20,000 nt of DNA. Origin: an uncultured virus (IMG/VR IMGVR_UViG_3300042893_001183). Taxonomy: Duplodnaviria > Heunggongvirae > Uroviricota > Caudoviricetes. Within the stretch, counting starts at the first letter, position 1; every line of letters begins with the position of its first letter. Position numbers and translations under genes: made by a program. Shown here piece after piece: positions 2,986 to 19,927 of this stretch. The stretch is from the IMG/VR virus record IMGVR_UViG_3300042893_001183; one strand, 5' to 3'. The notes beneath the pieces are model-generated. The model was not told where the DNA came from. It made no database searches and worked only from the letters and a program-made list of their open reading frames with translations.

Positions 2986-4524
2986 ATGAAAAAAATAAAA
3001 GAGAAAATCCAACAACTCGAAACACAAATACTTGAAAACCACATCACAAAAGAAAAAGAGTTGTTGATTAACGAAATGAAAAAAATAGGAATAGAAAAAT
3101 TACCCTATTCTTACTCAGCCCTGAAACAGTTTATTGACCCCGAGACAATGAACTTTCACTATAACAAACATTATAAGGGATATGTGGATAAATTGAATGA
3201 CGCTTTAAATAAAAAGAAATACGGGGATTTAGAGTTAGAACAAATAATCAAAACAATAAGTCGTTTTGATAAGACAATAAGAAACAACGCAGGAGGAGCA
3301 TTTAACCACGCATTGTTTTGGAATATGTTAACACCAACTCCAAAGAAATTAGAAGGAGAATTACTTAAAAAAATCACAAAACAATTCGGAAGTTTCACTG
3401 CGTTCAAGAAACAATTTGATACTGTTGCCAAAGATAGATTCGGTTCAGGGTGGGTATGGTTAGTCCTTACTGCCAAGAACACATTAAAGATTATGTCGAC
3501 TCCAAATCAAGACAATCCTTTAATGAATGTGATTGAAGGTGGTGGGTTTCCAATATTAGGGTTAGACTTATGGGAACACGCTTACTACTTGAAGTATAGA
3601 AACAAGCGAGACGAATATATTGTTAACTTTTGGAAAGTTGTAAACTGGGAATTTGTTTCCAAGTTATATGAAATGAAAACGGAAACTAAATTAGTAGAAT
3701 CCGTTAAGTTAGAAAAGTTGATAACAGAATCCAAAGAGGCAAAATTTTGTGACGCCAAGGAAGTTCAATTCTACAGAGAACTTATTAATAATTCAAACAT
3801 TAAGAGAATATACCAAGACGGAGTAACTAATGCTTTAAAAGAAGTGTTTAGTCAATTTTGGGTTGATAGTACAAATAAAGAAATGTCAGGGTTTTATGGA
3901 TTAGAGTCTAAAGAAGGAAGGTCTATTTTAAATAACCTAAACACAAACTTCAACACTTTTTGTTTATTAACCAAAGCAATTAATACTCAAATTGAAAAAA
4001 TAGGTAGACCTGAAAAGAAATTTGATTTTTCTAAAAAAGAAAATAGAACCATTAAAGAGATTAACAGATTAATGAATGCGTTGTATCATTTCAAAACAGA
4101 AATATTCACAAAAAACAACGAGGAGTTTATTAACATAATTAAAGTATTAAAAAAATTGTGGGATAGAGGACAAAAATCTGAAGATGATGTTTTAATTAAA
4201 ATTGAAAAATATTTTGGGGATTCCGCAAAACTTGAAAAGACTGGAGGACATGGTCAAAAAACCGACGCACTCCTTGGTGTTGATTTAACAATTACTTTAA
4301 ATGAAACAAGATATACCGCTCAGGTTAAACCATTTTCAAGAATAATAAACGAAGATGGAAAAATTACTGTAAAAGATACAGGAAATGTTAAACCGTACGA
4401 TGTTGATTGGTTGATATTTATTAATACAAAATCAAACGAGATTTTGATTTTTGAAAACAACCCGATTAAAAATCATAATCAATATGTGTTTAATGAGAGT
4501 TCATTAATTCATAAAATAGAATAG
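2986..4524 (+). CDS. sodA: Fe/Mn superoxide dismutase (Mn-type signatures) fused to a C-terminal PD-(D/E)xK-like domain
   Basis: aa ~36-229: LPYSYSAL..IDPETMNFHYNKHYKGY, NNAGGAFNHALFW, FGSGWVWL, PNQDNP, LDLWEHAYY. All four metal ligands are present, and GG and QD are Mn-type signatures. The ~280-aa C-terminal extension has G395xxxE399...GVD433...Q446VK448. Confidence 0.88.
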   Translation: MKKIKEKIQQLETQILENHITKEKELLINEMKKIGIEKLPYSYSALKQFIDPETMNFHYNKHYKGYVDKLNDALNKKKYGDLELEQIIKTISRFDKTIRNNAGGAFNHALFWNMLTPTPKKLEGELLKKITKQFGSFTAFKKQFDTVAKDRFGSGWVWLVLTAKNTLKIMSTPNQDNPLMNVIEGGGFPILGLDLWEHAYYLKYRNKRDEYIVNFWKVVNWEFVSKLYEMKTETKLVESVKLEKLITESKEAKFCDAKEVQFYRELINNSNIKRIYQDGVTNALKEVFSQFWVDSTNKEMSGFYGLESKEGRSILNNLNTNFNTFCLLTKAINTQIEKIGRPEKKFDFSKKENRTIKEINRLMNALYHFKTEIFTKNNEEFINIIKVLKKLWDRGQKSEDDVLIKIEKYFGDSAKLEKTGGHGQKTDALLGVDLTITLNETRYTAQVKPFSRIINEDGKITVKDTGNVKPYDVDWLIFINTKSNEILIFENNPIKNHNQYVFNESSLIHKIE

Positions 4525-5670: not shown

Positions 5671-6006
5671 ATGGCAATAATAAAAACAATACCATCAAGA
5701 AAGGTAATCAACGGGTTTGTTGTAGACACCTCAGAAATTTCTATAGTATCTGAATCAGAATATAAAACAAACGGTGAATCCTGTATTGTGATTAAAGGAG
5801 TTTCTGACTCTACAGTTATTTTAGATTCTACAACTACAGACCATATTGTTGTTAAATCAATGACAAGACTTACAATCAAACCAGACATCGGTAAAATTGA
5901 TGAAGACTATGACGAAATAGTCGCTGATAAGTACGCTTGTATTGAATTTAGATTTATGGGTGGAAGTTGGTATATTCTATCATCAGACGGTTTGAAGCAA
6001 TCCTAA
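5671..6006 (+). CDS. Small beta-rich protein, possibly T4 gp9/gp10-like baseplate/fibre-connector domain
   Basis: 111 aa, 4 nt after the gp13-like stop. Pattern TVIL....HIVVK....TI....GKID....I....IEF.F.GGSWYI is typical of that small structural domain. Confidence 0.4.
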   Translation: MAIIKTIPSRKVINGFVVDTSEISIVSESEYKTNGESCIVIKGVSDSTVILDSTTTDHIVVKSMTRLTIKPDIGKIDEDYDEIVADKYACIEFRFMGGSWYILSSDGLKQS

Positions 6007-8781
6007 TTTTTCTTTCCAACCCTCTTCGGCTAAGTGGTACATATAAAAAGGATTTAACCCTCTTTTTGCCCAATAACTTAATTCCTGTTCGGTAATATCC
6101 AAAACATCTTCTTGTAATTTATCTTGGGAACCTTCATCTAATGGGTGACCGTTGATAAGTTCACACTGAGTTGTTGTAAAAATACCTCTATCTGCAGGGT
6201 CATTAACAATTAAAGCATTTCTAACCTCATCTTTAAAGACGACCATTAAAGGTTCAATTCTTTTATTAAATGTTGCAATTGCTCTTGGTACATTATAATC
6301 ACCAGTTAAATCAGGGTCATTATCTAATATATCTTTATCCAACATATAACAGTTTACCATAACACCATCAGTTACAGGTTTTGATTTAGGATTCATAAGG
6401 GCGTTATAAGCATTCGTATCTTTAATTTGTTTTACAGTCATCTTTTGAACATCTCCTTGAGATGACTTAGTTCCGTTGTTAACATACAAAATAACATCAC
6501 CTAAATTTACATTTAAATTATTTTTTAATGCTAATTCCATGTGAGCCATTCTACTCATACTATTACCAGATTTAGTCTTTGTAGTTAACCTTTTAGTATA
6601 ATCATCAAGACTTAATTTAACTTTAGCTCTCTGAGCAATCTTACTTAATGGAATCTTTTTGTCAAATATGATTTGAAGATATTCATAATAATATTCAACA
6701 AATGCCTTACCATCACCTTGTAATAACATTTTAATACCCTTATCTAAAAACGTTTCAATATACAATGGAAGTTTCTTCGATTTAATACTATTACCTGTTA
6801 ACTTAATTTTACCCTTGGAATCCATAACGGCATAGTTCTTACGAGCCAAGTTAATACAAGACGGCCATACCCCATCGGTATCAAGAGCCATCTCACCTCT
6901 CATAAAGATATCGTTATACTCCGCAACATCAGCCTCAGGTCCATAATATTCTTTACCTAATTCAACCTTCCAATTCAAACCACGACCAACATAAACTCGG
7001 TCTTTTGCCTCATCAGGAGTCGAGAAGTTTACACCATCCGTATCCATTACCAATGGAACATATCCCTTGGTCATAAAGAATCTAATCATCTGACGAAGAT
7101 ATTGTCTACCTGTACAAGTGATTTGTTCTCCCATATACATGTCACCCCAAGCAAATACTTGTGGAGCGGACAACGCACCAAACATCGAGTTAATGAAAAT
7201 CTTAATCGGTAATTGTTTATTACCATATGATTCAGATTTCTTACGGTCAACATTATAAAACTCTTCGGCAAGTTGTTTGTATTTGATACGGGTGTTACGG
7301 AAATAACTTAACATTCCTTTCATTGCGCCTGTAACATCACAGTCAGGGAATACATCGTGTACTAATTGAATAGAAGGGTATAGAGACGAGAAATCGAGCT
7401 TAAGTACGTTCTTACTATAACCAACTTTAAGTAGTCGAGAAAGACCTCCTACGAAGTCTGTCTTGGATTCTTTGGCAGGTATTGCAAGTCCATGTTTATA
7501 AGACCAAGCCAACATTAACATTTTCCATAATGTTGCGGTACCCATTGTGGATACTCTTTCATATGTTGTTGGAATCATCGCAGCCAACAAGAACGAACCT
7601 TGGTTAAACTCTTGGTCAACCTTTAGAGTTTCATCTAAGTCATCATCAAGATACATCTCAACTAACTTGTCACCAGCAATCTGATTATAAACATCTGAAC
7701 GTTTAGAACAAGCGTCATCAATCTTAGAATCAACACCGACTTTCTTGTACTTACCGTTTTGAGTATTTAACCAATAATTTTCTTTCTTTGTATAGAATGG
7801 TCCAATATCTGAATGGTCAATGTATACACGGTCAGGTGCTTCGGCATTAATGAATTGGGTAATGTATTTCAAACCCGCAGCTTTAATACTTGAATTAATT
7901 GCCTGAGCTCTACGAACGGCATGAATAATATCAATAACGTTGTAACCCCAAATAGAAGTCTGAGTAAAGTTCTCAACCTCATTGGCAAGTTTTAACATAC
8001 TATCTTTTCTTGTGAAAGAATGTTCAGGGTGTAATGATTTACAAATCTTCTTTGGGTCAATATTTAAGATTCTACATCTTTCGAATATCCAATGCCAGTC
8101 GAAGTTTGCTGAATTATACCCACCAATAATACTCGGCTTAAGTTCATTAATCACGTTGAAAAATTCAATGATGGCATTTCTCTCTTCAGATTCATCCATA
8201 CATTCAATCACTTTGTGATAACCTTTATTAGTTTTAATTCCAATCATGAAGATACGACCGTCCTTAGGTTCAAGTGCAGTCGTCTCTAAGTCAAATACAA
8301 GACGAGTAACCTCTTCATAGTTTTCAAAACCTTTGAATAGTCTTTTTTCTTTTGAAATTAAATATTGTTCTACAGGAGGTAGAACCATCACCTTATCTTT
8401 AGTATTATCTCCCCATGGGTCACACCCACCTTCTCTAAAGAATTGGATTAGTTCTCTATAACCTTTTAAGGATTTAACCATAAAAGTCATACCCTTTTGT
8501 AATCTCTCATTACCATGGGTTTCTAACTTTTCAATCATGATACCATGTTTGGTCATAGCATCTTTCTGAGCTGCTTTTGAACCATTATAAAAGTTAATCT
8601 CACGCAAGTCACCAACCCACGCAAATGGTGTGAATGTATCTTTTCGGATTTCTTTTCCTTTACCAGGGATTTCTTTGATTTTGTAAATGCAGTTCTCGCG
8701 ATAGTCGTATTCGATAGCGACTATAAATTCTTCGGGGTCGTTTCCATGTAGGAACGATTCAATATCTTGGTCTGTAAACAT
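5983..8781 (-). CDS. polB: Family B DNA polymerase with 3'-5' exonuclease
   Basis: 932 aa. ExoI FDLETT, ExoII GYNSANFDW, ExoIII YLDDD, motif A LDFSSLYPSI, motif B KIFINSMFG, motif C MDTDG, then ARKNYA and KSKK. No intein is evident. Confidence 0.95.
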   Translation of the reverse strand: MFTDQDIESFLHGNDPEEFIVAIEYDYRENCIYKIKEIPGKGKEIRKDTFTPFAWVGDLREINFYNGSKAAQKDAMTKHGIMIEKLETHGNERLQKGMTFMVKSLKGYRELIQFFREGGCDPWGDNTKDKVMVLPPVEQYLISKEKRLFKGFENYEEVTRLVFDLETTALEPKDGRIFMIGIKTNKGYHKVIECMDESEERNAIIEFFNVINELKPSIIGGYNSANFDWHWIFERCRILNIDPKKICKSLHPEHSFTRKDSMLKLANEVENFTQTSIWGYNVIDIIHAVRRAQAINSSIKAAGLKYITQFINAEAPDRVYIDHSDIGPFYTKKENYWLNTQNGKYKKVGVDSKIDDACSKRSDVYNQIAGDKLVEMYLDDDLDETLKVDQEFNQGSFLLAAMIPTTYERVSTMGTATLWKMLMLAWSYKHGLAIPAKESKTDFVGGLSRLLKVGYSKNVLKLDFSSLYPSIQLVHDVFPDCDVTGAMKGMLSYFRNTRIKYKQLAEEFYNVDRKKSESYGNKQLPIKIFINSMFGALSAPQVFAWGDMYMGEQITCTGRQYLRQMIRFFMTKGYVPLVMDTDGVNFSTPDEAKDRVYVGRGLNWKVELGKEYYGPEADVAEYNDIFMRGEMALDTDGVWPSCINLARKNYAVMDSKGKIKLTGNSIKSKKLPLYIETFLDKGIKMLLQGDGKAFVEYYYEYLQIIFDKKIPLSKIAQRAKVKLSLDDYTKRLTTKTKSGNSMSRMAHMELALKNNLNVNLGDVILYVNNGTKSSQGDVQKMTVKQIKDTNAYNALMNPKSKPVTDGVMVNCYMLDKDILDNDPDLTGDYNVPRAIATFNKRIEPLMVVFKDEVRNALIVNDPADRGIFTTTQCELINGHPLDEGSQDKLQEDVLDITEQELSYWAKRGLNPFYMYHLAEEGWKEKLGLLQTV

Positions 8782-9270: not shown

Positions 9271-10944
9271 TTATGATTCTTTACGCAACTCTCTGTTATA
9301 ATGTTCGAATCTATCGTGTTCTGTTGGTGTCATAAGTAACAATCCAGGGTATAACTCATCTTTTTTAACTAACTGATACATATGACTCATCCATGTTTGT
9401 TCAAACGGATGTGCCCATGTTGTATCTAAAAACATTTTTTTGTTTCCTGGCCTACTAACAATCTGAGGCCAATTACAATAATAAACGTCACCAACCGCAT
9501 ATGGAACACCCTTGTGGGATAACACAGCATGGAATTCTGTTTTTGGTGCATTAGGGTCAAGTCCCATTTCTGGAAGTCTTGGTTTACCTGGCCAAAATTC
9601 ATCTCTTACATGTTGAGGCACATTATACCAAGCCCACTGAGTTCCATTGTCTCCATAAAACTCAGAATAATTCATCTTTAAAAAATCAAAATTTTCTTTC
9701 TTAATAATTTCTAAAGACTTTGTATATAAATTTGGAACGTATCTATTAAATCCATTTCTACAGGATGTCCCCTCATTTGGAAAGAAGAACATATCATCTT
9801 CGAAAAATAAATAATAATCTAAATCGGTTTTATCAAAATGTTCGGCAATCCATTGTCTACCACCACATATACCTAAATTATCTTTCTTAATATGTTCAAA
9901 TCCAAATTCTTCACAAATTGTTAAGTATTCTTCGGTAGTTGATAAGTCACTTGAATTATCTAACAAAAACTTTTTAGTTTTTAGTATGTAGTCCTTATCA
10001 TATGCCAACATAGAATCAATAAGAGTTCTAAATTGTTTTGGACTATTGAATGTAATAACATACAATCCAACTTTGTTTGGGTCCAAAGTATTACTAACTT
10101 TTTCTGTATTTTCACTTTTAACTTTGAGCTCATCGTTTTTTAAATTTTCAAAAAATGTTCCGATTAAACCATTTGATTCAATTTCAAAATAGTTAATCAT
10201 ATCCGAATGTTTATAAGTCATAATACTGAAAATTGATTCTTCAGTACCCATGTATCCATCTTCTAATGTAGATTTAAGTAACCCATAATAAATTCCATTG
10301 ATATCTCCTATTGTATGTTTTGGTCCACCAAAAAATCCTCCTCTAGAAACTTTGGTAACTTTGGCTCCAGCAAGAGCATTTAATTTAGGATAATTGAATC
10401 CATGTATTTCAGTCTCAGCACCATATGGAAAACTAACAAATGAAAATTTTGAAATATATTTTGATAAATTATTTAATACTTTATCATGAGTAAAGTATCC
10501 TGGATGAACTGTATTTGTTAAACCACCATCAATCCAAAACATATATTCTGAATCAAATTGGTCCATTATTTTAGCATCATGTAATAAAAAAACTTTAGAC
10601 ATAACTAATGGATTGTAATTATCTAATCTTGCTTGAGTAGATTCTTTTAACCAACCAACTTGATTATACCATTCTGGATTTGTTCTTATTTTTTGAATCA
10701 TTGGGAAAAACTCTGAATTAGTAAACCAACTTAATGGCCTTACAATAAACTGAGTGGTTTTAGAACTTCTTCTTTCAAAAACAAATTCTTTTAATTCTTC
10801 GTCTCCAAAGATTATTAAGTTTTCTTCAACCTCTAAAAGTTTTTCAAACTTATCTAAATAATGTTGATAAGGTCTTGACCATCCTTCGGTCAATTCACCT
10901 CTTCCGATATCCCAAATACCTGTTACTAATGTTATATTACTCAT
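9271..10944 (-). CDS. Two-domain glycosyltransferase: HtrL/YibB(WlaTC)-like N-domain plus GT-A (GT2-like) C-domain
   Basis: N-domain: ITLVTGIWDIGR, YNPLVMSKVFLL, MFWIDGG, GGFFGG, GTEESIF. C-domain: LYVITFN, LLDNSSD, NLGICGGRQW, LFFEDDM (DxD-like). Confidence 0.75.
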   Translation of the reverse strand: MSNITLVTGIWDIGRGELTEGWSRPYQHYLDKFEKLLEVEENLIIFGDEELKEFVFERRSSKTTQFIVRPLSWFTNSEFFPMIQKIRTNPEWYNQVGWLKESTQARLDNYNPLVMSKVFLLHDAKIMDQFDSEYMFWIDGGLTNTVHPGYFTHDKVLNNLSKYISKFSFVSFPYGAETEIHGFNYPKLNALAGAKVTKVSRGGFFGGPKHTIGDINGIYYGLLKSTLEDGYMGTEESIFSIMTYKHSDMINYFEIESNGLIGTFFENLKNDELKVKSENTEKVSNTLDPNKVGLYVITFNSPKQFRTLIDSMLAYDKDYILKTKKFLLDNSSDLSTTEEYLTICEEFGFEHIKKDNLGICGGRQWIAEHFDKTDLDYYLFFEDDMFFFPNEGTSCRNGFNRYVPNLYTKSLEIIKKENFDFLKMNYSEFYGDNGTQWAWYNVPQHVRDEFWPGKPRLPEMGLDPNAPKTEFHAVLSHKGVPYAVGDVYYCNWPQIVSRPGNKKMFLDTTWAHPFEQTWMSHMYQLVKKDELYPGLLLMTPTEHDRFEHYNRELRKES

Positions 10945-11818
10945 AAATTCTATTAAATTCTTCTAATATTCTATAGAAGCTTTTATTGTTTAAGAAGAGT
11001 TCTTCATCAACTCCTCTAGGCGCGTTGTCTCTACACCACCAAATATCGAAATGTTTTCTAACAAATAAATCTAAATGGTTAAAATACATTAAAGTCATAA
11101 CGTGTTCTTCATGTGGTATACCCTTATCTTCAGTTATTATTTTTTGAATATAGTCTTCAAATAAATTAACAACCTCATCCCACTTATCTCTGTGTCCACC
11201 AAACATACCACCAATCACATGAATACTTCTATCGTATTCAGTATACCATTTTCTATCTACAGTACCTGACCAATAGTTTCTATCATTTTCTTTACCTAAA
11301 ATTAAAAACTTATCACTCGTATCCTCAATAAGATTCTTTAAAAAATCATTATTAAACAAACTACTTTCATAATATCTTTGTTGGATATGTTCATTTGTTA
11401 GATATTTTAGAGGAATCAATCCACAATGAGATAATCCAGCATCAATCCAATAATAATAATCATAAGATTTATCTTCGTTCCACCACCAATGGAACTTACT
11501 GTATTGAACCTCAACACATCTGTCTCCATTTTTAGTTTCCTCAATATTCTTATATTGATTAATCAAATCTTTAAATTTGGTATTTCCAATATCAAAAACC
11601 TGAAACTTAAGTTTGTCTTTTGGAATTGAGTATTCGACATAAAAAAACTCTTCTAATGAAGGTAATTCTCTATCTGAAGTGTAACATAGGAAATCCGCGT
11701 CTGTCATCTTTAAAAGTGACAACAAACTATACCTATAATGTCCTCCTCTATTTGGTCTACCTCCGAATTCAGTACCATATAGGTCACTGTAAATTGATGT
11801 TATAAATTTAACTGACAT
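10937..11818 (-). CDS. HtrL/YibB(WlaTC)-like putative glycosyltransferase
   Basis: 293 aa. VQYSKF, YYWIDAGLSH, IGGMFGG, HEEHVM. Parallels the N-domain of the downstream gene, with an 8-nt overlap. Confidence 0.65.
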   Translation of the reverse strand: MSVKFITSIYSDLYGTEFGGRPNRGGHYRYSLLSLLKMTDADFLCYTSDRELPSLEEFFYVEYSIPKDKLKFQVFDIGNTKFKDLINQYKNIEETKNGDRCVEVQYSKFHWWWNEDKSYDYYYWIDAGLSHCGLIPLKYLTNEHIQQRYYESSLFNNDFLKNLIEDTSDKFLILGKENDRNYWSGTVDRKWYTEYDRSIHVIGGMFGGHRDKWDEVVNLFEDYIQKIITEDKGIPHEEHVMTLMYFNHLDLFVRKHFDIWWCRDNAPRGVDEELFLNNKSFYRILEEFNRIYE

Positions 11819-12557
11819 AATAAAATTCTTTATGTTCCCCGTTATCTTTCATTTCTTGAACTTTGTATTGGTCCATAAATTCGTTAGGGATTTTAGTTGG
11901 GCACCACCTATTCCAATTATAGGTTTGCATGTACCAATTACTATACATACCTTCAGATATGTTTGAGTAACCAGATTTCTGTGGAGCTATTGGTAAAATT
12001 GGACAGTAGCTTTGATGTTTTTGTACAATAAATTTAAAAGTATAATCATCTAAGGCATGGAAATAATCACCACTGGTAAATGCCGTCAAACCAATATCAA
12101 AGATATCATCGTAAATTGATTGGTCATAAATTATCATATTTGCAGCATATATACCACGAGCATTTTCACCTTCACTAGGTTCAGGTAAGTTAGTCATATC
12201 TAACAATAAATCATATTCCTTGCTAACAGAAATCTCTCTATTTTGAGTTGGAGCCAAATTAAACATCGCAAATTCTAAATTAGGATAACTATCTTCTATT
12301 TTTTGAAGTAAATCTTTTGCATATGGCATAAAACCACAATCATCCTCAATAATCATAACACGAGGATATTTTTGTTCTTTAGCAATCTTAATAATTTCAA
12401 AAGTTGATTTGGTGATGCCCATATAAGAATTAGTATCTATTGCGGGAAATCTTTGAAAATCCCATCCGAGATATTTCATTTCCTTTGTAATTTCTTCTAA
12501 CCTATCAGGTCGTCTATCTAAATTTACAATAAACTTAGGGATTTCATTAAATTTCAT
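11808..12557 (-). CDS. Glycosyltransferase family 25-like protein
   Basis: 249 aa. FIVNLDRRPDRLE...FQRFPAID and MIIEDDC are GT25 (Lex2B/LgtB-type) hallmarks. Confidence 0.8.
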   Translation of the reverse strand: MKFNEIPKFIVNLDRRPDRLEEITKEMKYLGWDFQRFPAIDTNSYMGITKSTFEIIKIAKEQKYPRVMIIEDDCGFMPYAKDLLQKIEDSYPNLEFAMFNLAPTQNREISVSKEYDLLLDMTNLPEPSEGENARGIYAANMIIYDQSIYDDIFDIGLTAFTSGDYFHALDDYTFKFIVQKHQSYCPILPIAPQKSGYSNISEGMYSNWYMQTYNWNRWCPTKIPNEFMDQYKVQEMKDNGEHKEFYYVS

Positions 12558-13822
12558 TAACTAATTACATTGTGATTTAATTGACCAGTTATCCTATCAC
12601 ACCATCCTTTTGATTCTGAGTGAGGCCAAACTACCCAATAAGAAGGTAATTCTGTTGTTGGGAATTCTCTCCAAACTTTACAATACTTATCAGGGTCTCT
12701 CATAAATCCTGCAATTTCATTCTTATCCGCATCTTTTCTATATAATGTTTCGTCAGAACCATTGTGGAATGCAACAACCCAAAAATCATAATCGGTTTCA
12801 GTAACTTGTGAATATCCAATATCAATACAATGTTTAAATATTGTTGAGAATGAATTTTTCCAATCTTCTTCAGTTTCAAAGTTATAAGGACTTGGTGGAT
12901 ATTGTTTGTCCAAACAATGTTTGTCTACTGCTCTTTTTTCAAATAATAAACCTGAATATTTTTCATAATCTTTTAAACTTCTAACAGTACCAAATCCGTA
13001 TTGTCCATCATGTCCTTGTTGAGTTTCACCATCCATACCAAATAACTTTCTATTTGTTAAGTGAGAGTGGGTATTTTTTTGACCCCAAGTTTTATCATCA
13101 TCCCATTGTTTAGTTCTACCTTTACGAGTATACTCGTGATAAACAACAGGAATGTGTGGGTGAAATAAATCATAACCCCATGTATAAGCTCTTGCTGCAA
13201 TTGAAATCTCTTCTCCGTGGAAATAATATTCAGGGTTGTGTTGAACTTCTTTTGAAAATTCTCCTAAAGTAAAACAGAAGTGAGCAGAATAGAATCTTGA
13301 TGTAACAGGTTTTTTCATTTCTCTCCAACCTGGAATTGTTTCAGGTAAGAAGAATACCGCACCTTCAGGAATGAATCTATCGAAGGCCATTCTCCAAGCA
13401 TCTTGCGCTCTACCTGCTGGTTCATTATCAGGGTCGAAGGATGGTACATATCCCGTAAGTAGAGGTTTCTTGTGCCCATCCTTTTGTAGACCCTTTATCA
13501 TCTTGATTAAGATATCATCCCAATCTTTGACAAATCTCATATGAGAGTCAATTTGTAGTGTATATGATTCTCCATCATAAAGTTGTTGTGTTAGGTTTCT
13601 TGCCCAACAAACACCTTTTGCATCTTGATAAGGAATGTCTAAGATTTTAAATCTTTTGTCATCTCTATATTCATCTAAGTTATCAAACCCATCTTCTTCT
13701 GCGAATTGTCTTGCAATTGAGAATACTAAATTTTTAGGTTTCTTGGCGTTTTCCAACATGTCTTTTATTGTTGGTATTAACTGTGGGTCTCTGTAGGACG
13801 CAATTTGAACGAATATTTTCAT
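12557..13822 (-). CDS. GT60 / Gnt1-like (PF11397 'GlcNAc') polypeptide or hydroxyproline N-acetylglucosaminyltransferase
   Basis: 421 aa. IFVQIASYRDPQL, AKGVCWAR, LQIDSHMRF..WD, YFHGEEI..AARAYTWGYDLFHP, VYHEY, YGFGTVRSL.DYE are signature motifs of Dictyostelium Gnt1/Gnt2 and trypanosomatid OGNT. There is an extra ~90-aa C-terminal domain. TAATG overlap with the next gene. Confidence 0.85.
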   Translation of the reverse strand: MKIFVQIASYRDPQLIPTIKDMLENAKKPKNLVFSIARQFAEEDGFDNLDEYRDDKRFKILDIPYQDAKGVCWARNLTQQLYDGESYTLQIDSHMRFVKDWDDILIKMIKGLQKDGHKKPLLTGYVPSFDPDNEPAGRAQDAWRMAFDRFIPEGAVFFLPETIPGWREMKKPVTSRFYSAHFCFTLGEFSKEVQHNPEYYFHGEEISIAARAYTWGYDLFHPHIPVVYHEYTRKGRTKQWDDDKTWGQKNTHSHLTNRKLFGMDGETQQGHDGQYGFGTVRSLKDYEKYSGLLFEKRAVDKHCLDKQYPPSPYNFETEEDWKNSFSTIFKHCIDIGYSQVTETDYDFWVVAFHNGSDETLYRKDADKNEIAGFMRDPDKYCKVWREFPTTELPSYWVVWPHSESKGWCDRITGQLNHNVIS

Positions 13823-13846
13823 TAATGTCTATTTTGTATTAAAAAT

Positions 13847-13878
13847 AAAAAACCCTCCACAAAAGTAGAGGGTTTTTT
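13847..13878 (-). terminator. Rho-independent terminator (A-tract/U-tract, potentially bidirectional)
   Basis: Minus strand AAAAAA-CCCTCTAC-TTTT-GTGGAGGG-TTTTTT, 23 nt downstream of the stop at 13902. Confidence 0.85.
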
Positions 13879-13901
13879 GAAATATATTATTTTTAATTTT
13901 A

Positions 13902-14513
13902 TTAACTATGTGTTGGCGTATTAGTTAATGTTGGTGTATTAGTTGGTGTTTCAGTATTTGTAGGAGTTTGAGTATTAGTTGGCGTTGGAGTGTTAGTAGG
14001 AGTCGGTGTATTAGTTGGTGTTTCGGTGTTAGTTGGAGTTTGAGTATTTGTTGGCGTTTGTGTATTAGTTGGTGTTTGTGTATTAGTTGGTGTTTGTGTA
14101 TTAGTTGGTGTTGGAGTGTTTGTAGGAGTTTGTGTGTTAGTTTGGGTTTGTGTTGGAGTTTCGGTGTTAGTTGGAGTTGGTGTTGAAGTTTCAGTGTTAG
14201 TTGGAGTTGGTGTTGGAGTTGATGTGTTTGATGCAGTTATACTTACTGTTGGTGTATTAGTCGGAGTTTGAGTATTTGTTGGTGTCGGAGTCGCAGTCTC
14301 ACTAATTGGAGGGAAAGACCCCTGATTAATCAAAGAAACTGAACTAGTATAAACAGGAGAAATTGTATACGTCCCGTTAATTACCCAAATATTCTTTGTT
14401 TGATTTGGATTTAATTCAACTTGATACTCCCAAAGAGAGTCATCACATCTTCTATAATTAAAGTTCACAATTGTGGAACCTGTATTTGTTAAGGTATATT
14501 TGCTACATGCCAT
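13902..14513 (-). CDS. Putative virion-surface protein: small Cys-containing N-domain plus mucin-like Thr-Pro tail
   Basis: 203 aa. ~70-aa beta domain (C.KY.LTN...Y.RCDD...LNP) followed by 129 aa of TPTNT(Q/E) repeats running to the C-terminus. Confidence 0.7.
13911..14297 (-). repeat. Coding Thr-Pro repeat (18-nt/12-nt units; [16 protein letters not shown])
   Basis: Includes three exact copies of GTTTGTGTATTAGTTGGT at 14056-14109. Other units differ mainly at synonymous positions. Confidence 0.9.
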
Positions 14514-14532
14514 CTTAAATGTTATTTATTTA

Positions 14533-14539
14533 ATAAATA
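14533..14539 (-). promoter_or_regulatory. TATTTAT motif (candidate late promoter)
   Basis: gTATTTATtaaataaataacatttaagATG, 19 nt before 14513. Confidence 0.5.
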
Positions 14540-14593
14540 CTACGATTTTCTCTAATTTTATAAAGTAATCTTATTTTATTTCTTAAATAAGAT

Positions 14594-14656
14594 TTATGTT
14601 GTTGTAGTGGTTTGAGTATTAGTTGGAGTTTTCGTATTTATTGAGGTTGTTGTTGG
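14594..14656 (-). pseudogene. Orphan Thr/Pro-repeat coding remnant
   Basis: Translates as PTTTSINTKTPTNTQTTTTT*. Preceded by in-frame TAA TAA and no start codon, in the intergenic gap. Confidence 0.5.
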
Positions 14657-14691
14657 TTATTATAAAATAATTACAATCTGTTGAATACGTA

Positions 14692-15771
14692 TTAACTCAA
14701 TAATCCCGAAAGATAATCAGAAGTTAAATCAGTCCAAGTACCTGCGGATGTTACACTATTCCATGTCCACGCAGAAAATCCATCAACTTGAACATAAGAT
14801 TCATAACCATAGTCTGTGTTTATAAAAATACCGTTACACAAATATACTGGATTTTCACTAACATATCCTAAAGCAGATAATGTTCCTCCTGTAACTGCAG
14901 CTGGTAAATAATCATATAAAAATTGGTTAGCATTATTTCTAATAACTCTTGTAGCATGTACCATACTCTCACCATATGTCATTGCCGATAAAGTTGCTCT
15001 TTCAGGCCATAACATATCTTGAAGATAATAAAATTCATAATCTCCAGTTCCTGACCAAGATGGAAAGATTGGTTGTGTTGCACCTGATGCAATAACTTGA
15101 GCGATTGCTCCAGCAACTGCACCGCAAGTTGTTGACAAAGTAGTATTACTAACATTACCTTTACGATATATGTAACCTACATCACCATCAAGAGTAATTC
15201 CAATATGTGGTGTACTTGAAATAAATAATGTTCCTCCAGAAATTGTTGAACCTGTTGTTATATGACTTGCCCACGCTCCCAAACCAACTTGACCAACAAA
15301 TGGATAACCAGCTAAACCTCCTGACATAAATGGCCCAAGAAGAGAACTCATCGATGTAGGAAATTGACCAATATTACTAACTCCTTGTACTACTAGAGCA
15401 TCAACATCATCAGAACAAATTCCTTCAGCATATACAATATCTTCAGGTGCAAACCCTAATGATTGCATAAATCCTGTAGTATATGAACCCCAAAAACTAG
15501 ATAAAACAGAACCTGTAAATGTTAAATTAACAGTTTCAGTATACGCCGATTGAGCTGGTGCTGGTTCAGGTATTGTTATGGTATATTCTGTTTGATATTC
15601 AGTGATGAATAAATCGTACTCTCCATATGGATATTCTGAATAATAATTAAATGGAACTATTTGGGTACCTAAACTAATTGTTCCTCCAGTTACTGGCCTA
15701 AAAACAGTAGGATTTGATGTTTTTCCTATTAAACTGTTACTTGAGATTCTAACTCCTTCTATTGTTGACAT
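14692..15771 (-). CDS. LCIB/LCIC-family (theta-class) carbonic anhydrase-like domain fused to an N-terminal virion module
   Basis: 359 aa. GIC119SD121D, GPF..GGLAGYPFVG..G..AWASH, PH189IGIT.DG..G.IYR.G, TTC216GA and GIFINTD are the LCIB_C_CA motif set with a Cys/His/Cys Zn triad. aa 1-70 are paralogous to the N-terminus of 15808..16191. Confidence 0.8.
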   Translation of the reverse strand: MSTIEGVRISSNSLIGKTSNPTVFRPVTGGTISLGTQIVPFNYYSEYPYGEYDLFITEYQTEYTITIPEPAPAQSAYTETVNLTFTGSVLSSFWGSYTTGFMQSLGFAPEDIVYAEGICSDDVDALVVQGVSNIGQFPTSMSSLLGPFMSGGLAGYPFVGQVGLGAWASHITTGSTISGGTLFISSTPHIGITLDGDVGYIYRKGNVSNTTLSTTCGAVAGAIAQVIASGATQPIFPSWSGTGDYEFYYLQDMLWPERATLSAMTYGESMVHATRVIRNNANQFLYDYLPAAVTGGTLSALGYVSENPVYLCNGIFINTDYGYESYVQVDGFSAWTWNSVTSAGTWTDLTSDYLSGLLS

Positions 15772-15783
15772 ATTTTTTTATTT

Positions 15784-15790
15784 ATAAATA
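15784..15790 (-). promoter_or_regulatory. TATTTAT motif (candidate late promoter)
   Basis: aaTATTTATaaataaaaaaatATG, 12 nt before 15771. Confidence 0.5.
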
Positions 15791-15807
15791 TTATGATTTA
15801 TTGAAAT

Positions 15808-16191
15808 TTAATTTTGAATTATGGCGTATAATAAATCACCATTAGGTATGTCCAATGCCGACAAATTATCCAAAGGAATTGTTTCATACAATAATTCACC
15901 ATTAGGTATGTCTAATGCCGACAAATTATCCAAAGGAATTATGTCATATAATAATTCACCTGTAGGAATTAATTCGTATGTTGGTGATGGACAAGGTACA
16001 TTAATTGTATAAGTATAATTATATATTGCAACATAGCAATCATAAGTTCCATACCAATAATCGGTAATATAAGTAAATGGAAATGTTTGTTCACCTAAAC
16101 TAATTGTACTACCAGTACAAGAATGAAAGGTAACATTTGCGGTTAATCCGCTTAAATTATCACTAAATATTGATACACCACAATCTGCCAT
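15808..16191 (-). CDS. Putative virion protein: shared N-module plus 10/20-aa IPxxxLxY repeats
   Basis: 127 aa with no Lys or Arg. N-terminus GV.I.S..L.G.T.N..F...TG.TISLG.Q..PF.Y...Y.YG.YD. C-terminus IPLDNLSALDIPNG(E/D)LLY twice. Confidence 0.65.
   Translation of the reverse strand: MADCGVSIFSDNLSGLTANVTFHSCTGSTISLGEQTFPFTYITDYWYGTYDCYVAIYNYTYTINVPCPSPTYELIPTGELLYDIIPLDNLSALDIPNGELLYETIPLDNLSALDIPNGDLLYAIIQN
15827..15960. repeat. 60-bp coding tandem duplication (~2.2 copies)
   Basis: 15841-15880 and 15901-15940 are identical except for one base (attaggtatgtc[c/t]aatgccgacaaattatccaaaggaatt). Confidence 0.9.
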
Positions 16192-16195
16192 GTTA

Positions 16196-16202
16196 ATAAA
16201 TA
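16196..16202 (-). promoter_or_regulatory. TATTTAT motif (candidate late promoter)
   Basis: gagTATTTATtaacATG, 4 nt before 16191. Confidence 0.6.
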
Positions 16203-16224
16203 CTCAAAAATTTTATTTTATCTT

Positions 16225-16794
16225 TTAACATACCCCAACATTAATAATTTGATTACCGCTAAGTTGAATAAATCTACCTCCGTTTGAGATTGTAAAATTG
16301 GCATCTATTGGTGGAATAGTTAAAGATTGGTTACCATATACGTAATCTCCAACTTCCAAAATTTCAAAAGGTTTTGAAGTGTAGATTGTAACGTTTTTAG
16401 GATTTGCTGTCATACTAACAGATTGACAAACATTTTGATACCATCCACCTGTTCTTAGATTATACATATAAACTGTTGTTGGTGTAACCGTTGGTGTTGT
16501 TGTGGGTGTTGGAGTTGGAGAAGTTGAGGTTGGAGTAGGTGTTACCGAACTTTGAGTTGGTGTTGATGTAATAGTTGGAGTTGGTGTTGTCGAGGGACAT
16601 AATCCTACTAAAGATATTGTAAGAGGAGCTCCATAACTTTCAACAATTAAATCCTTAGCACAAACATATTGTACTTCTAACGGGTTAATTGGTGAAACAC
16701 TAATTATATCCGTACAACCAGTCCATCTATAATATCCTTCTTCGACATTATTGTAGTTGGTTATAATAAAATAGTTACAGTCTGTTGTATTCAT
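16225..16794 (-). CDS. Putative virion-surface protein: two small Cys domains joined by a Thr-Pro linker
   Basis: 189 aa. N-domain C.YF.ITN...YRWTGCTD...INP resembles the 203-aa protein. A 41-aa PSTTPTPT...TPTT linker is at 16474-16596. The C-domain ends in GVC. Confidence 0.65.
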   Translation of the reverse strand: MNTTDCNYFIITNYNNVEEGYYRWTGCTDIISVSPINPLEVQYVCAKDLIVESYGAPLTISLVGLCPSTTPTPTITSTPTQSSVTPTPTSTSPTPTPTTTPTVTPTTVYMYNLRTGGWYQNVCQSVSMTANPKNVTIYTSKPFEILEVGDYVYGNQSLTIPPIDANFTISNGGRFIQLSGNQIINVGVC

Positions 16795-16795
16795 T

Positions 16796-17308
16796 TTAAC
16801 TTACTTTAATATATCCGTAATTAACCGTAAAACCTGATACCGTATTGTTTTGAATACCGAATACAAATGTATTTGTTGATGTACCTACAGATGGTGAAGC
16901 AGTAGATATTGAACCCGCGGTTCCTATAATCTGTGCAGGTATAGTTGTAAACAATATTGGACTACCCCCACCAGTATAATTCCAGGCATACTGAACACCA
17001 ATTACTGGTACATTAGTATTACTAACACTTACTGTAGCATTATAAACTATTATACCATTTGGTATATTTCCAAGAACCCATAAGTTATACACATTATTAA
17101 TATCAACTGTAAAACTGTAGTTATTAGTCCCTGGAGTCACCGTCCAACTACCTGAGACTGGTGACACCACATTTGTTGAATATCCACTAAATAGTGTTTC
17201 TTTAGCCACCTTAAATGATTCCGTATTACCACTATTGTTCATAACAATAAACGACCCATTAGTATTTCCCGTAAATGTCGGTAATTGACTTATTTTTGTA
17301 TTTGCCAT
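16796..17308 (-). CDS. Putative fibre/virion structural protein with N-terminal KISQLP motif
   Basis: 170 aa. MANTKISQLP...IVM.....SFKV...TL N-terminus is typical of phage fibre attachment segments. The remainder is beta-rich in S/T/G/N. Confidence 0.55.
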   Translation of the reverse strand: MANTKISQLPTFTGNTNGSFIVMNNSGNTESFKVAKETLFSGYSTNVVSPVSGSWTVTPGTNNYSFTVDINNVYNLWVLGNIPNGIIVYNATVSVSNTNVPVIGVQYAWNYTGGGSPILFTTIPAQIIGTAGSISTASPSVGTSTNTFVFGIQNNTVSGFTVNYGYIKVS

Positions 17309-17323
17309 TTTATTCTATTTTTT

Positions 17324-19927
17324 TTATATAATATCTATTTCAATATTATCGTTATTTTCTGCCGTAGCAATTGAATCATCTTCAAATAATAAGAAGTATA
17401 GTTGGGTTGATGTTGGGGTTGGAGTTGTTGTTGGTGTATTAGTCGGTGTAGATGTTGTAGTTGGTGTTGGTGAACTAGTCGGTGTAGGTGTTGGAGTTGG
17501 GGTTTCTGTATTAGTTGGAGTTTGTGTTGGAGTTTCACTTGGTGTATTTGTAGGGGTTTCAGTTGGAGTTGGTGTTTGAGTTTCTGTTGTAGTTGGTGTT
17601 ACTCCAATAGTACCACTTGGAGTATTTGTTGGAGTAACACTTGGAGTATTTGTTGGAGTCTCTGTATTAGTAGGAGTTTGAGTTGGTGTATTTGTAGGTG
17701 TTTCAGACGGAGTATTAGTAGGAGTTTCCGTATTAGTAGGTGTGTTGGTAGGGGTTGGCGTTGGAGTTTCGGTATTTGTAGGAGTTACAGTATTAGTGGT
17801 GGTAACTGTTGGAGTCGGAGTTGGCGTTGGAGTCGATGTTTCAGTATTGGTTGGAGTTACTGTGTTGGTAGGAGTACTAGTTGGAGTCTCAGTGTTAGTA
17901 GGTGTTGGTGTTTCTGTTGCAGTATTTGTTGGAGTTTGAGTTGGAGTTTGAGTTGGGGTTGATGTTGGGCATGGATAGAAAGAAGAAAACAAATCATTAC
18001 ATGGTACCGTCAAATATCCTAAATCAGTACAAGGTACTGAGATATATAATAAATCGTTATTAGGTATAAAGATTCTACAATTAAGACAATTAGGGTCTAA
18101 TAGGTTATATCTGTTTTTTAATAACTTAAAGTTGTGTCTAATTTGAGATGCATTCAACGGTTCAGTATACATTCTAAATGCACTAACATCACCAATCATA
18201 CTACCACCAAAAATTTCTTCTAATCTTATTTGAGTTGTAAGACCTGAGTATTCAGTATGTTCTAAGTCATAATCAGTTAAACATTCAGGGTCTTGTTGAT
18301 ATGTAATACCACTTAACTCTGCGGGACACCCTGCAGAGAATGTTAAGTTGTCGTGAAGACCTTGAGTACCTCCTCCAACTGAAATATTATACCCAACCCC
18401 AATTTGTTTTTCTTTTTCAACATTAAGAAGTCTTGGGATTATTTCTTCAAAATTTTCAGCCACCAAAAATAATTTACCGTTAACATAAAATTTAAGAGTA
18501 CCTAATCTATATTTTTGTTCTTCGGTCCACATATCAGTAAATGTTACAACCTCTGTTGAAGGTGGAATATATCCTGGGTCATGTGTTATTGGTGGTTCAA
18601 CTAATGTTACACTTCTATTCTCTAATGTTGCAAAATATACATCATCAACTAAAAGACCAAGACCTCCCTTTTCATATAAGTCACAGGTATCAAACCATTC
18701 TCTTCTTTGGAATACGGCGTCTATTTGAACCCAATGTTCAACGTTAGGGTAAGTTGTTCCACTACAATCATCAAAGATTCCTCTTGTAGAACACCATTCA
18801 GTTACAGAAGTTCCTGTGTGATAAGTCAATCCTGTAAGACAAGTTCCACTGTATTCACACCCTCCTGTTATTCTATATGTCTTAACACATAGTCTTGGAC
18901 TACCAGTATCACCACTTAATCTTAAAGACAATGCATTTGAAACCCCATCATATAATGGGTCTTTCTCAGCGTATTTGGCTGTTGTTTGGCAATCACAAGG
19001 GCAACCACAAGTGCAATGAGTTATCGTACCTCCCGATGGTTGATACACCTGCAGACATTCAGATGAAGTATTTGCGGTACTTGCACAACCACAAGTATGC
19101 ATACAAGTTAACCCTGAAGTCACTCTTGTGTACCCTGTATCTTGTTTTGGTTCACCATCAGCATAATGATAGAATTTGTTTTCGGCTCTCGCCCCCATGT
19201 AGAAAAAAGTTCCCTTATTATCTGGATACCTTGCGTTAAGTCCGACAGAAGTATCTCCTGTCCATCTGTATCTTAACATAAATTCAGCTGTCCACCCTAA
19301 CGATACTCTTTGAGGGAACACCTGATAGTCGTATCCTGGTAACTTATAAAAACCTTGGAAGAATCCTCCGTTTAATCTGGCAAAATAACCCACAGGATTA
19401 CCATCCGTGGCGTAATACATATTATAGGAGTAAGAGTCATCATTCCACAATCTATTTTCTGAAGTTGTGAAACCAGTGATAGGGTGCATTTTCATTCTCC
19501 TATCATATTTGTATCTACTAAATCTGTCTGACTCTGTTTCGTAAAGACCAGTTGTTATTTCAATAGTCTCACCTGACATGTTTTTAACAAGTCCATTGTC
19601 AATACCTGTCAAACCAACATCACATAACTCAGTAACAATTGGACAAAAATTAGGGTCGGTATCAGTTGGATTCCAATAGTTTTCAGATACAATAGTATCA
19701 TCATCAAATGTGCATGAATTTGTTTGACATTTTGTAGTTCCTGAACTATTAAAGTCAAATTTGAACGGCATTCTATTACCATTATCCTCACCAATTAGTA
19801 ATGGTGAAAAAATAACTTCTTGGTCGTAGTCTTTCTCATCTGACGCGAGACAAATGTCCGTGACTTCGTTGACAGGTTTAATACCCCATCGTCTAAAATT
19901 ATATTGATTAATATTTTGATATGCCAT
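17324..19927 (-). CDS. Large virion protein: Cys-rich LamG/ConA-like lectin domain plus long mucin-like Thr-Pro stalk
   Basis: 867 aa. [21 protein letters not shown] and [28 protein letters not shown] are LamG/Laminin_G_3 motifs. Has [13 protein letters not shown] inserts, a 188-aa TP repeat and an acidic C-terminal LLFEDD..A.AENN.I motif. Confidence 0.7.
17405..17968 (-). repeat. Coding Thr-Pro repeat (188 codons; [14 protein letters not shown] units)
   Basis: Degenerate GTTGG-rich repeats on the + strand, conserved at the protein level with heavy synonymous variation. Confidence 0.9.

Follow-up and report, generated by a model that had tools for sequence, protein, structure and literature searches.

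A GT60-family glycosyltransferase operon beside Thr/Pro-tract genes in a giant phage: a candidate system for mucin-type O-glycosylation

In protists such as Dictyostelium and Trypanosoma cruzi, the attachment of O-linked N-acetylglucosamine (GlcNAc) to proteins is initiated by glycosyltransferases (GTs) of family GT60. The available excerpts of one review (PMC8724618) describe the characterised GT60 enzymes as polypeptide alpha-GlcNAc transferases that act on mucin-type domains, give every characterised member that they cover a polypeptide acceptor, name Thr/Pro-rich tracts as the substrates of both GT60 and GT27 enzymes, and mention fucose capping in Dictyostelium. The subject of this report is a GT60 homologue encoded by an uncultured virus (IMG/VR record IMGVR_UViG_3300042893_001183), within a 20,000-nt stretch of DNA that is called the window below. 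Its gene heads a four-gene GT operon and is preceded by six genes, three of which encode Thr/Pro (TP) tracts. An earlier reading of this DNA, the first-pass annotation, had taken GT60 members to be O-GlcNAc initiators on mucin-like domains, in agreement with the review excerpts, and had proposed that the phage glycosylates its own TP tracts.

Viruses that glycosylate their own particles are known. According to papers that cite Freeman et al. 2023, the mycobacteriophages Che8, Corndog and Myrna use phage GTs to modify their own structural proteins in the host cytoplasm, and the glycan sites are the C-termini of the capsid and tail-tube subunits. For phage XacN1, the available sections of the genome paper (PMC5852040, with the legend of Supplementary Fig. 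S4) name two GTs, ORF328 and ORF334, report at least two Schiff-stained (periodic acid-Schiff-positive) glycoprotein bands in virions, and suggest the phage GTs as their makers; the connection between ORF334 and the glycoproteins is the authors' suggestion only. Giant viruses provide further cases of virus-encoded virion-protein glycosylation that is independent of the endoplasmic reticulum, as is proposed here (the capsid glycans of chlorovirus PBCV-1; Mimivirus R699 and collagen-type GTs), although these are eukaryotic viruses and use different linkages. In T-even phages, sugar transferases that glucosylate DNA adjoin replication genes, as the GT genes do in the window. Finally, the part of the 'moraphage' paper at hand (PMC12619734) describes aquatic jumbo phages of Bacteroidota with four GT orthogroups in their core. 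The literature search found no paper tying GT60/PF11397 to phages or to TP-tract phage proteins; since phage virion glycosylation is already published for mycobacteriophages and suggested for XacN1, the idea is not wholly new.

The four GT genes of the window lie on the minus strand and comprise GT60 (12557-13822; 421 aa, a predicted polypeptide alpha-N-acetylhexosamine (HexNAc) transferase), a GT25-like gene (11808-12557; 249 aa), g293 (10937-11818; a 293-aa, HtrL-like, single-domain putative GT) and g557 (9271-10944; a two-domain GT of 557 aa). Successive genes overlap by 1 nt (GT25-like/GT60), 11 nt (g293/GT25-like) and 8 nt (g557/g293), and the four are therefore coupled, as had been described. 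They belong to a longer co-directional minus-strand array that runs g867, g170, g189, g127, g359, g203, GT60, GT25-like, g293, g557, g125 and family-B DNA polymerase (PolB). All twelve proteins lack a hydrophobic stretch that would fit a signal peptide or membrane helix (maximum KD19 1.36). Because this holds for the enzymes and the TP proteins alike, any reaction between them would be cytoplasmic, which is the site that the first-pass annotation had given.

The family assignment of GT60, for which a check against hidden Markov models and CAZy had been suggested, is unambiguous. The protein matches PF11397 with 226.5 bits against a cut-off of 21 (E 8.4e-67) and, among PHROGs, phrog_24687 at 4e-167. 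It consists of a GT-A catalytic domain (aa 1 to ~327) followed by a beta-rich C-terminal domain (aa ~326-414). Residues D92, H94 and H229, which form a D-x-H pattern with a downstream His, are invariant in 35 and in 42 diverse sequences; we take this pattern to be the metal and uridine diphosphate (UDP) site common to GT60 and GT27. The nearest solved folds, by a clear margin, are the GT27 mucin-type initiating polypeptide N-acetylgalactosamine (GalNAc) transferases, which have the GT-A fold. Sequence searches of the PDB with GT60 and with g557, and a profile search with GT60, returned nothing. The enzyme is predicted from its sequence to be a soluble homologue of the polypeptide HexNAc-transferases, with GlcNAc as the probable donor sugar. 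With the protist enzymes it shares the PF11397 family, the D-x-H...H pattern, the GT27-like fold and Thr/Pro tracts as candidate acceptor. Unlike them, it is soluble and would act in the bacterial cytoplasm rather than the Golgi, it carries the extra C-terminal beta-domain, and its HtrL/GT6-like plus GT-A partner is unknown in the protist pathway. Homologues are abundant in metagenomes, where 7,332 of 8,000 scored candidates reached E <=1e-10 and 4,508 cluster representatives (50% identity) reached E <=0.001. Many of those among P0121-P0270 are giant multi-domain proteins that reach 2,461 aa and hold as many as four GT60-like stretches; only 4 of these 150 contain S/T/P-rich tracts themselves.

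The partner protein g557 is composed of two GT-A domains, as seen in an AlphaFold2 model with a predicted local distance difference test score of 93.8. The N-terminal one (aa 1-268) is HtrL/GT6-like, and the other (aa 286-555) contains an invariant E382-D383-D384. Residues 3-252 match HtrL_YibB (PF09612) at 1.4e-20 (74.4 bits versus a cut-off of 24.1), and the N-terminal domain scores 82.8 bits with the NCBIfam equivalog TIGR02192, below its cut-off of 264.9; on these scores the domain is classed as an HtrL_YibB family member and not as a YibB orthologue. The best Foldseek matches that span both domains of g557 include Mimivirus R699 and human LH3/COLGALT1 (E 6e-10 to 5e-12), yet the root-mean-square deviation over both domains is 17-19 A, so that only the tandem GT-A layout is held in common. 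The protein g293 has no Pfam match, also at relaxed thresholds, and is a predicted HtrL family member that joins the family by profile-profile alignment only (hhalign of its family profile with the g557 N-domain: probability 99.35%, E 6e-21, 228 columns). The GT25-like protein matches PF01755 at 1.6e-8 (35.1 bits, cut-off 24), with aa 7-46 covering only positions 3-42 of a 199-position profile. Given these family matches, the g293 alignment and the two domains of the g557 model, the previous count of five GT-like domains stands, with GT25 as the weakest of them.

The C-terminal domain of g557 has weak matches to a PHROG of T-even beta-glucosyl-HMC alpha-glucosyltransferases (5e-4, over 50 aa) and to a TET-associated GT (0.15). 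These matches, and the position of the operon two genes from PolB here and ~5 kb from DNA polymerase in XacN1, would suit GTs that glycosylate phage DNA, as hypermodified bases, against restriction. This possibility appears very improbable. The weak matches span the generic GT-A nucleotide-binding core only, and the 50-aa match is the only sequence that the T-even system and the window lineage have in common. In addition, the complete relatives G001 (321 kb) and G002, and also XacN1, each carry a single gene of the thymidylate-synthase family (PF00303), and that of G001, the one gene scored, is a true ThyA (TIGR03284, 303 bits versus a cut-off of 108). Therefore, no hydroxymethylase for dCMP or dUMP is seen in these genomes, and the refutation that the first-pass annotation had itself foreseen, GTs acting on DNA, finds no prerequisite enzyme in the complete relatives. 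The window's own contig is rated 14% complete (CheckV, per IMG/VR), which makes the absence of a hydroxymethylase there uninformative. A search for Tet/JBP gave no match, although the controls of that search were silent, so that the empty result carries little weight. Finally, XacN1 DNA was mapped by BssHII, NaeI and SpeI digests, as stated in the sections of the paper at hand (PMC5852040).

Insight into which of the four genes belong together comes from comparison with relatives. Eighty IMG/VR loci, on contigs of up to 326 kb, encode a GT60 that is 85-100% identical to that of the window. This close lineage retains the order g203, GT60, cassette, g557, g125, PolB. A g557 gene is present in 78/80 of the loci and the g203 N-terminal domain in 73/80, most misses of both being at contig ends. 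The GT25-like gene is absent in 10/80 and g293 in 9/80, the GT25-like protein is only 47-57% identical in many close relatives, and variant loci have one to seven other open reading frames (ORFs) between GT60 and g557. In about ten of the 80 (L033, L045, L047, L055-L057, L059, L063, L065 and L081), the GT25-like gene, and usually g293 too, is exchanged for three to seven other small ORFs. A more distant set of 81 viral loci, collected by alignment query, has GT60 proteins 45-76% identical to that of the window, which fall into 57 clusters when grouped at 80% identity; the distant GT60 P0172 as a lone query yielded one locus. Within 10 kb of GT60 in this set, g557 was found 50 times, g293 12 times and GT25 four times; when only the 46 distant loci with 8 kb on both sides are counted, g557 lies within 10 kb in 30. 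Among bacterial genome loci, g557 stands beside GT60 in 29/78.

The same pairing is seen in cultured phages. In 50,697 records, GT60 occurs in XacN1, Xoo-sp13, Stenotrophomonas CM1 and RAS14 only (44-47% identity), and a full-length g557 homologue (39-41%) occurs in the same four and no others. In XacN1, GT60 (ORF334; 45%), g293 (28%) and g557 (41%) form one operon; in XacN1 and RAS14 this operon, which includes the 28% g293 homologue as well as a carbamoyltransferase, is flanked by DNA polymerase at one end and, at the opposite end, by baseplate genes and the gene for a 3,313-aa protein. As in the window, the four phages have GT60, a g293 homologue and full-length g557 in one operon near DNA polymerase, and have long TP tracts; they differ in that a carbamoyltransferase and another ORF replace GT25, in that the TP-tract genes are far from the operon save for short tracts in ORF325, and in that the hosts are high-GC Gammaproteobacteria. 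The alternating-Thr tracts of XacN1 (ORF384, ORF174, ORF180 and ORF325) reach 265 aa; the giant ORF325, with its short TP tracts, is three ORFs from the GT9 gene ORF328 and ~9 kb from GT60. The recurrent pairing argues that the functional unit is GT60 plus g557 and that the remainder is exchangeable. Thus, the conserved partner of GT60 is the HtrL+GT-A protein g557, not GT25, and GT25 with g293 is a swappable cassette.

Three of the six genes upstream of GT60, all on the minus strand, encode the candidate acceptors. g203 (13902-14513) begins with a 70-aa N-terminal domain, and from there a TP tract extends to the C-terminus (nt 13905-14300; aa 66-203, core ~72-203). g189 (16225-16794) has a 42-aa TP tract between two domains (nt 16471-16596; aa 66-115, core 67-108). 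g867 (17324-19927) consists of a conserved 645-aa Cys-rich N-terminal domain, a TP stalk of ~190 aa (nt 17387-17986; aa 648-847) and a 20-aa acidic tail. The tracts, previously put at 129, 41 and 188 aa, measure ~130, 42 and ~190 aa in g203, g189 and g867; they are imperfect tandem repeats of 18-102 nt and are far from chance composition. Thus, dense Thr/Pro acceptor-type tracts are encoded together with a GT60-family enzyme of the initiating type, the gene content by which a mucin system is recognised.

The association between GT60 and TP-tract genes, whose survey across phages had been proposed, is real and partial. Of 69 complete cases in the close lineage, 65 have a g203-type gene whose end lies 78-100 nt ahead of GT60. 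In distant clades a TP-tract ORF is the immediate same-strand upstream neighbour of GT60 in 26/79 loci and 18/55 clusters, as compared with a share of such genes in the same loci of ~5.3% (binomial 2e-10); this is an approximately sixfold enrichment, weakened as support by a background that assumes one gene per kb and is approximate, and by the phylogenetic relatedness of the GT60 loci, whose counts are not independent. The distant upstream neighbours have no tblastn similarity to g203, g189 or g867, except in the closer relative L152. They include a recurrent family (a 55-aa N-terminal domain, a TP tract, and an InlB-B-repeat or PA14), lectin-like, RCC1-repeat and large fibre-like proteins, and P-domain modules as well. 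A back-translated TPTxTPT pattern gave 220 matches within 10 kb of GT60 in 37 records, versus 101 expected by length, and 19 of the 27 records with any match have one near GT60; the reversed-read control gave 25 matches over the 37 records, 18 of them in one record, and none in G001, G002, XacN1, RAS14 or phages without GT60.

At the level of whole genomes, all nine GT60-bearing records of this survey rated at least 90% complete carry TPTxTPT matches, and so do G001 (74), XacN1 (51), G002 (36) and RAS14 (22), whereas no match came from four large phages that lack GT60 (190-484 kb; 1.12 Mb in total), a negative control of four genomes only. The complete 321-kb relative also has a second cluster (L249, G001:C1:303000-316000) with four TP-tract proteins of 456-1,433 aa, one of which carries SprB repeats, and this cluster adjoins or faces GT9 and FkbM-methyltransferase genes. 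SprB repeats are typical of Bacteroidota surface adhesins. These data bear on the idea that the GTs glycosylate virion proteins elsewhere, such as capsid or tail-tube termini, and that the TP tracts are bare spacers. It has precedent in the mycobacteriophage sites, which, as related in the citing papers, are capsid and tail-tube C-termini rather than long TP stalks on fibre-like proteins, in phages of Actinobacteria; the XacN1 paper, in the sections at hand, does not assign its stained bands to proteins, and numerous GT60 loci have no TP gene close by. The excess of TP genes at the position next to GT60, the co-occurrence of tracts and GT60 at the genome level, and the Thr/Pro-rich substrates that the review excerpts (PMC8724618) give for GT60 and GT27 all speak for the tracts as acceptors, and we regard modification elsewhere on the virion as distinctly unlikely.

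A further reading of the four GTs is that, in the course of infection, they make or remodel a host envelope glycan (lipopolysaccharide (LPS), capsule or exopolysaccharide) and so might, for instance, block superinfection or keep progeny from sticking to debris. The TP tracts would then be plain unglycosylated linkers, and the adjacency of GT and TP genes mere clustering of accessory, fast-evolving genes. HtrL/YibB is a bacterial family, located in the LPS-core locus of E. coli, and the Pfam family of GT25 bears the name 'LPS biosynthesis protein'. Elsewhere on the contig is another sugar-nucleotide and GT cluster of much greater size (GT2, GT4, GT10, GT11, DegT, PglD-like, UDP-glucose dehydrogenase and epimerase genes), 40/81 distant loci lack a TP ORF in the 10 kb on either side of GT60, and a 2026 preprint (10.64898/2026.10.24.761521), in the portion available, counts huge-phage GTs as envelope-associated. 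Bacterial GT60-g557 pairs also stand beside a priming sugar transferase and a GT4. In a 1.17-Mb contig of a Gemmatimonadaceae metagenome-assembled genome (MAG), a PqqD-domain protein with a hydrophobic segment and a C-terminal TP tract (L182:7230-7955, plus strand) lies directly upstream of GT60-g557, which speaks for the tie between GT60 and TP tracts, and this locus may be a cellular version of the same system; its other neighbours are NTP_transf_5, Bac_transf and GT4, the last two of polysaccharide type. The family names, the distant loci that have no TP gene, the company that the bacterial pairs keep, and the 54/78 bacterial loci without a TP frame all count against glycosylation of the tracts.

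Other observations make an envelope target less likely than the tracts, though it is still a serious alternative. All characterised GT60 enzymes in the review excerpts (PMC8724618) act on polypeptides, and the closest folds of GT60, by their clear margin, are polypeptide GalNAc-transferases. The roughly sixfold enrichment of TP genes directly upstream of GT60 involves proteins that are non-homologous. Glycoproteins were found in XacN1 virions, according to the sections at hand (PMC5852040), and the window operon showed no flippase, no polymerase and no priming enzyme for a lipid carrier.

Taken together, these comparisons lead us to favour phage-encoded, mucin-type O-glycosylation of TP-tract, fibre-like proteins, initiated by GT60, with a probability of roughly one half. 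Our inferences on acceptor, sugar, order of action and placement on the virion are as follows. In the infected cell, GT60 would transfer the first HexNAc, probably GlcNAc, from a UDP-sugar to Thr of the (Thr-x)n or Thr-Pro tracts of phage proteins synthesised there. The glycan would then be lengthened by g557, with its GT6-like HtrL domain and second GT-A domain, and diversified by the cassette between GT60 and g557, here GT25-like plus g293 and in relatives other GTs and methyltransferases. The TP proteins g867, g189 and g203, with conserved N-terminal domains, variable stalks and exchangeable distal adhesin-type modules, would leave on the virion.

Several findings weigh against this proposal, besides those already named. 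No sugar has been seen on any protein of the window phage. The fold evidence for the enzyme comes from GT27 only, as no GT60 entry is among the 50 structural matches listed. TP tracts lie only elsewhere in 6 of the 10 contigs of at least 150 kb, and many TPTxTPT matches are away from GT60 (39/74 in G001, 27/36 in G002); in addition, four close relatives have a g203 N-terminal domain without a tract. The six upstream genes have no match to known virion proteins in Pfam, PHROGs or the cultured phages. The operon and the upstream genes are adjacent and co-oriented, as had been noted, but the claim that they directly abut must be qualified: the 79-nt gap between g203 and GT60 holds a strong terminator-like hairpin (13847-13878, minus strand) with a 14-bp stem, five GC pairs and a T-run. 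Terminator-like sites as a class are not enriched, since the region has 8 versus 6.1 expected. Because the hairpin parts g203 from GT60 and the array runs on into DNA polymerase, co-expression of the operon with late genes is conjecture.

A broader version of the favoured proposal, held tentatively and at somewhat less than even odds, is that a portable core of GT60 and an HtrL/GT6-like+GT-A protein, found in aquatic jumbo phages, distant phages and some bacteria, builds mucin-like O-glycans on the (Thr-x)n stalks of fibres and adhesins in the bacterial cytoplasm, and that the hypervariable GT/methyltransferase cassette generates glycan diversity in the manner of O-antigen loci. If this is true, a eukaryote-type mucin pathway and a 'glycocalyx' would belong to bacteriophages as well, and mucin-type O-glycosylation would not be limited to eukaryotic secretory pathways but would be run by phages in bacteria, with thousands of metagenomic homologues. 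It would account for the Thr-Pro tracts often seen in large aquatic phage proteins, and would give a role to GT genes that recent jumbo-phage surveys, in the parts available, list as core or frequent with the role undecided. Coating of the fibres with glycans would influence adsorption, resistance to proteases and the stickiness of particles in water, and the enzyme pair would be a compact tool for placing defined O-glycans on recombinant proteins in bacteria.

The upstream genes themselves are best read, from their domain architecture, as encoding fibres or decorations (g867, g189 and g203) that would leave the cell on the virion, because their proximal domains are conserved, their stalks vary in length, their adhesin-type tips are shuffled and they have no secretion signals. 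Among 69 complete relatives g203 retains its N-terminal domain while its tract varies from 0 to 408 residues (at least 20 in 65/69) and its length from 71 to 1095 aa; the g189 tract has 41-53 residues in 43/43 complete relatives. The 120 listed g867 homologues have N-terminal domains 80-98% identical and lengths of 631-1462 aa, and 105 of the 120 have a TP tract (0-396 residues over the set). Their distal ends consist of Laminin_G_3, a DUF285 'surface protein' domain, a 20-aa acidic tail as in the window, or a repeated tail of the g127 type. Atlas gave concanavalin-like lectins as its lead for g867 (0.92). No informative family was found for g867, g170, g189, g127, the g203 N-terminal domain or g125 in Pfam, PHROGs or NCBIfam at relaxed thresholds, and neither the g867 N-terminal domain nor a representative upstream TP protein of the distant loci matched the cultured phages. 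Of the six putative virion-surface genes that had been announced, the six ORFs (867, 170, 189, 127, 359 and 203 aa, at 13902-19927) are thus confirmed; they are unnamed in family libraries, and their place on the virion surface is conditional in the sense just given. A common N-terminal domain of g203 and g189 was suspected and was not supported by BLASTP.

The remaining three genes of the set are also on the minus strand. g127 (15808-16191) consists of an N-terminal module common with g359 and a repeated C-terminal tail module, which corresponds to a 60-nt tandem repeat at 15816-15960. The same tail ends the g867 homologues P0303, P0331 and P0335, in place of the TP stalk; modules therefore shuffle between these genes. 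g359 (14692-15771) shares its N-terminal 67 aa with g127 at 49% identity, and its aa 102-332 match the LCIB-type beta-carbonic-anhydrase-like family PF18599 at 6.9e-29. This domain is odd cargo in a phage fibre-like gene set, and its occurrence is sporadic, g359 being full-length in few close loci only. g170 (16796-17308) is a small protein of no assigned family, present in some relatives only; the Atlas lead is Gp53-like_C (0.83), and the other matches are viral hypothetical clusters only.

The window corresponds to bases 33,545-53,544, read on the reverse strand, of a single virus contig of 59,480 bp and 32% GC. Genes for a tail sheath of 1,068 aa, a gp19-like tube protein, baseplate-like proteins, PolB, an SNF2 helicase, PhoH and a dUTPase mark this contig as a fragment of a contractile-tailed phage (a jumbo myovirus). 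The closest cultured sheath, that of Microcystis phage Mel-JY01, is 32% identical, and megablast of the locus against cultured phages gave no match. Two of the relatives' contigs, of 321 and 326 kb, have a completeness rating of 100%, and terminal repeats are present on one of them; the label 'huge phage' therefore holds by way of these relatives, though not for the 59,480 bp of the contig itself. The source is a giant freshwater-type phage. The best bacterial GT60 matches (67-69%) lie on low-GC MAG contigs of Saprospiraceae/Bacteroidia; together with the SprB repeats in G001, they hint at a Bacteroidota host or at mis-binned phage contigs. Sigma-70-like promoter matches are fewer than in shuffled sequence (57 versus 67.9), and no promoter was therefore assigned.

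The second glycan-synthesis cluster of the contig lies outside the window at ~10,200-30,800 of G000:C1 (loci L001 and L002). Its GTs comprise several GT2, GT1/GT4, and the fucosyltransferase families GT10 and GT11, and its other genes encode an NAD-dependent epimerase/dehydratase, a DegT aminotransferase, a PglD-like acetyltransferase, a UDP-glucose/GDP-mannose dehydrogenase, a Zn-dependent alcohol dehydrogenase (Zn-ADH), methyltransferases and an NAD synthase. The GT10 and GT11 genes recall the fucose capping of Dictyostelium and, with the GT6-like fold of the modelled HtrL domains, raise the idea that fucosylated, blood-group-like epitopes are conceivable. Just outside the window, at 31518-31976 (minus strand) of the same contig, is a gene for a 152-aa protein with a weak WYL-domain match and a short terminal Thr-Pro run, the only TP-pattern match of the contig beyond the three genes near GT60. 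Within the window, aa 60-116 of PolB (5983-8781, minus strand), which precede the exonuclease domain, give an unexpected above-threshold match to a BofC C-terminal domain (PF08955, 7.8e-7). A plus-strand gene at 2986-4524 encodes a 512-aa protein in which a complete Fe/Mn superoxide dismutase, with both Pfam domains, is followed by a C-terminal region of ~280 aa that has no known family.

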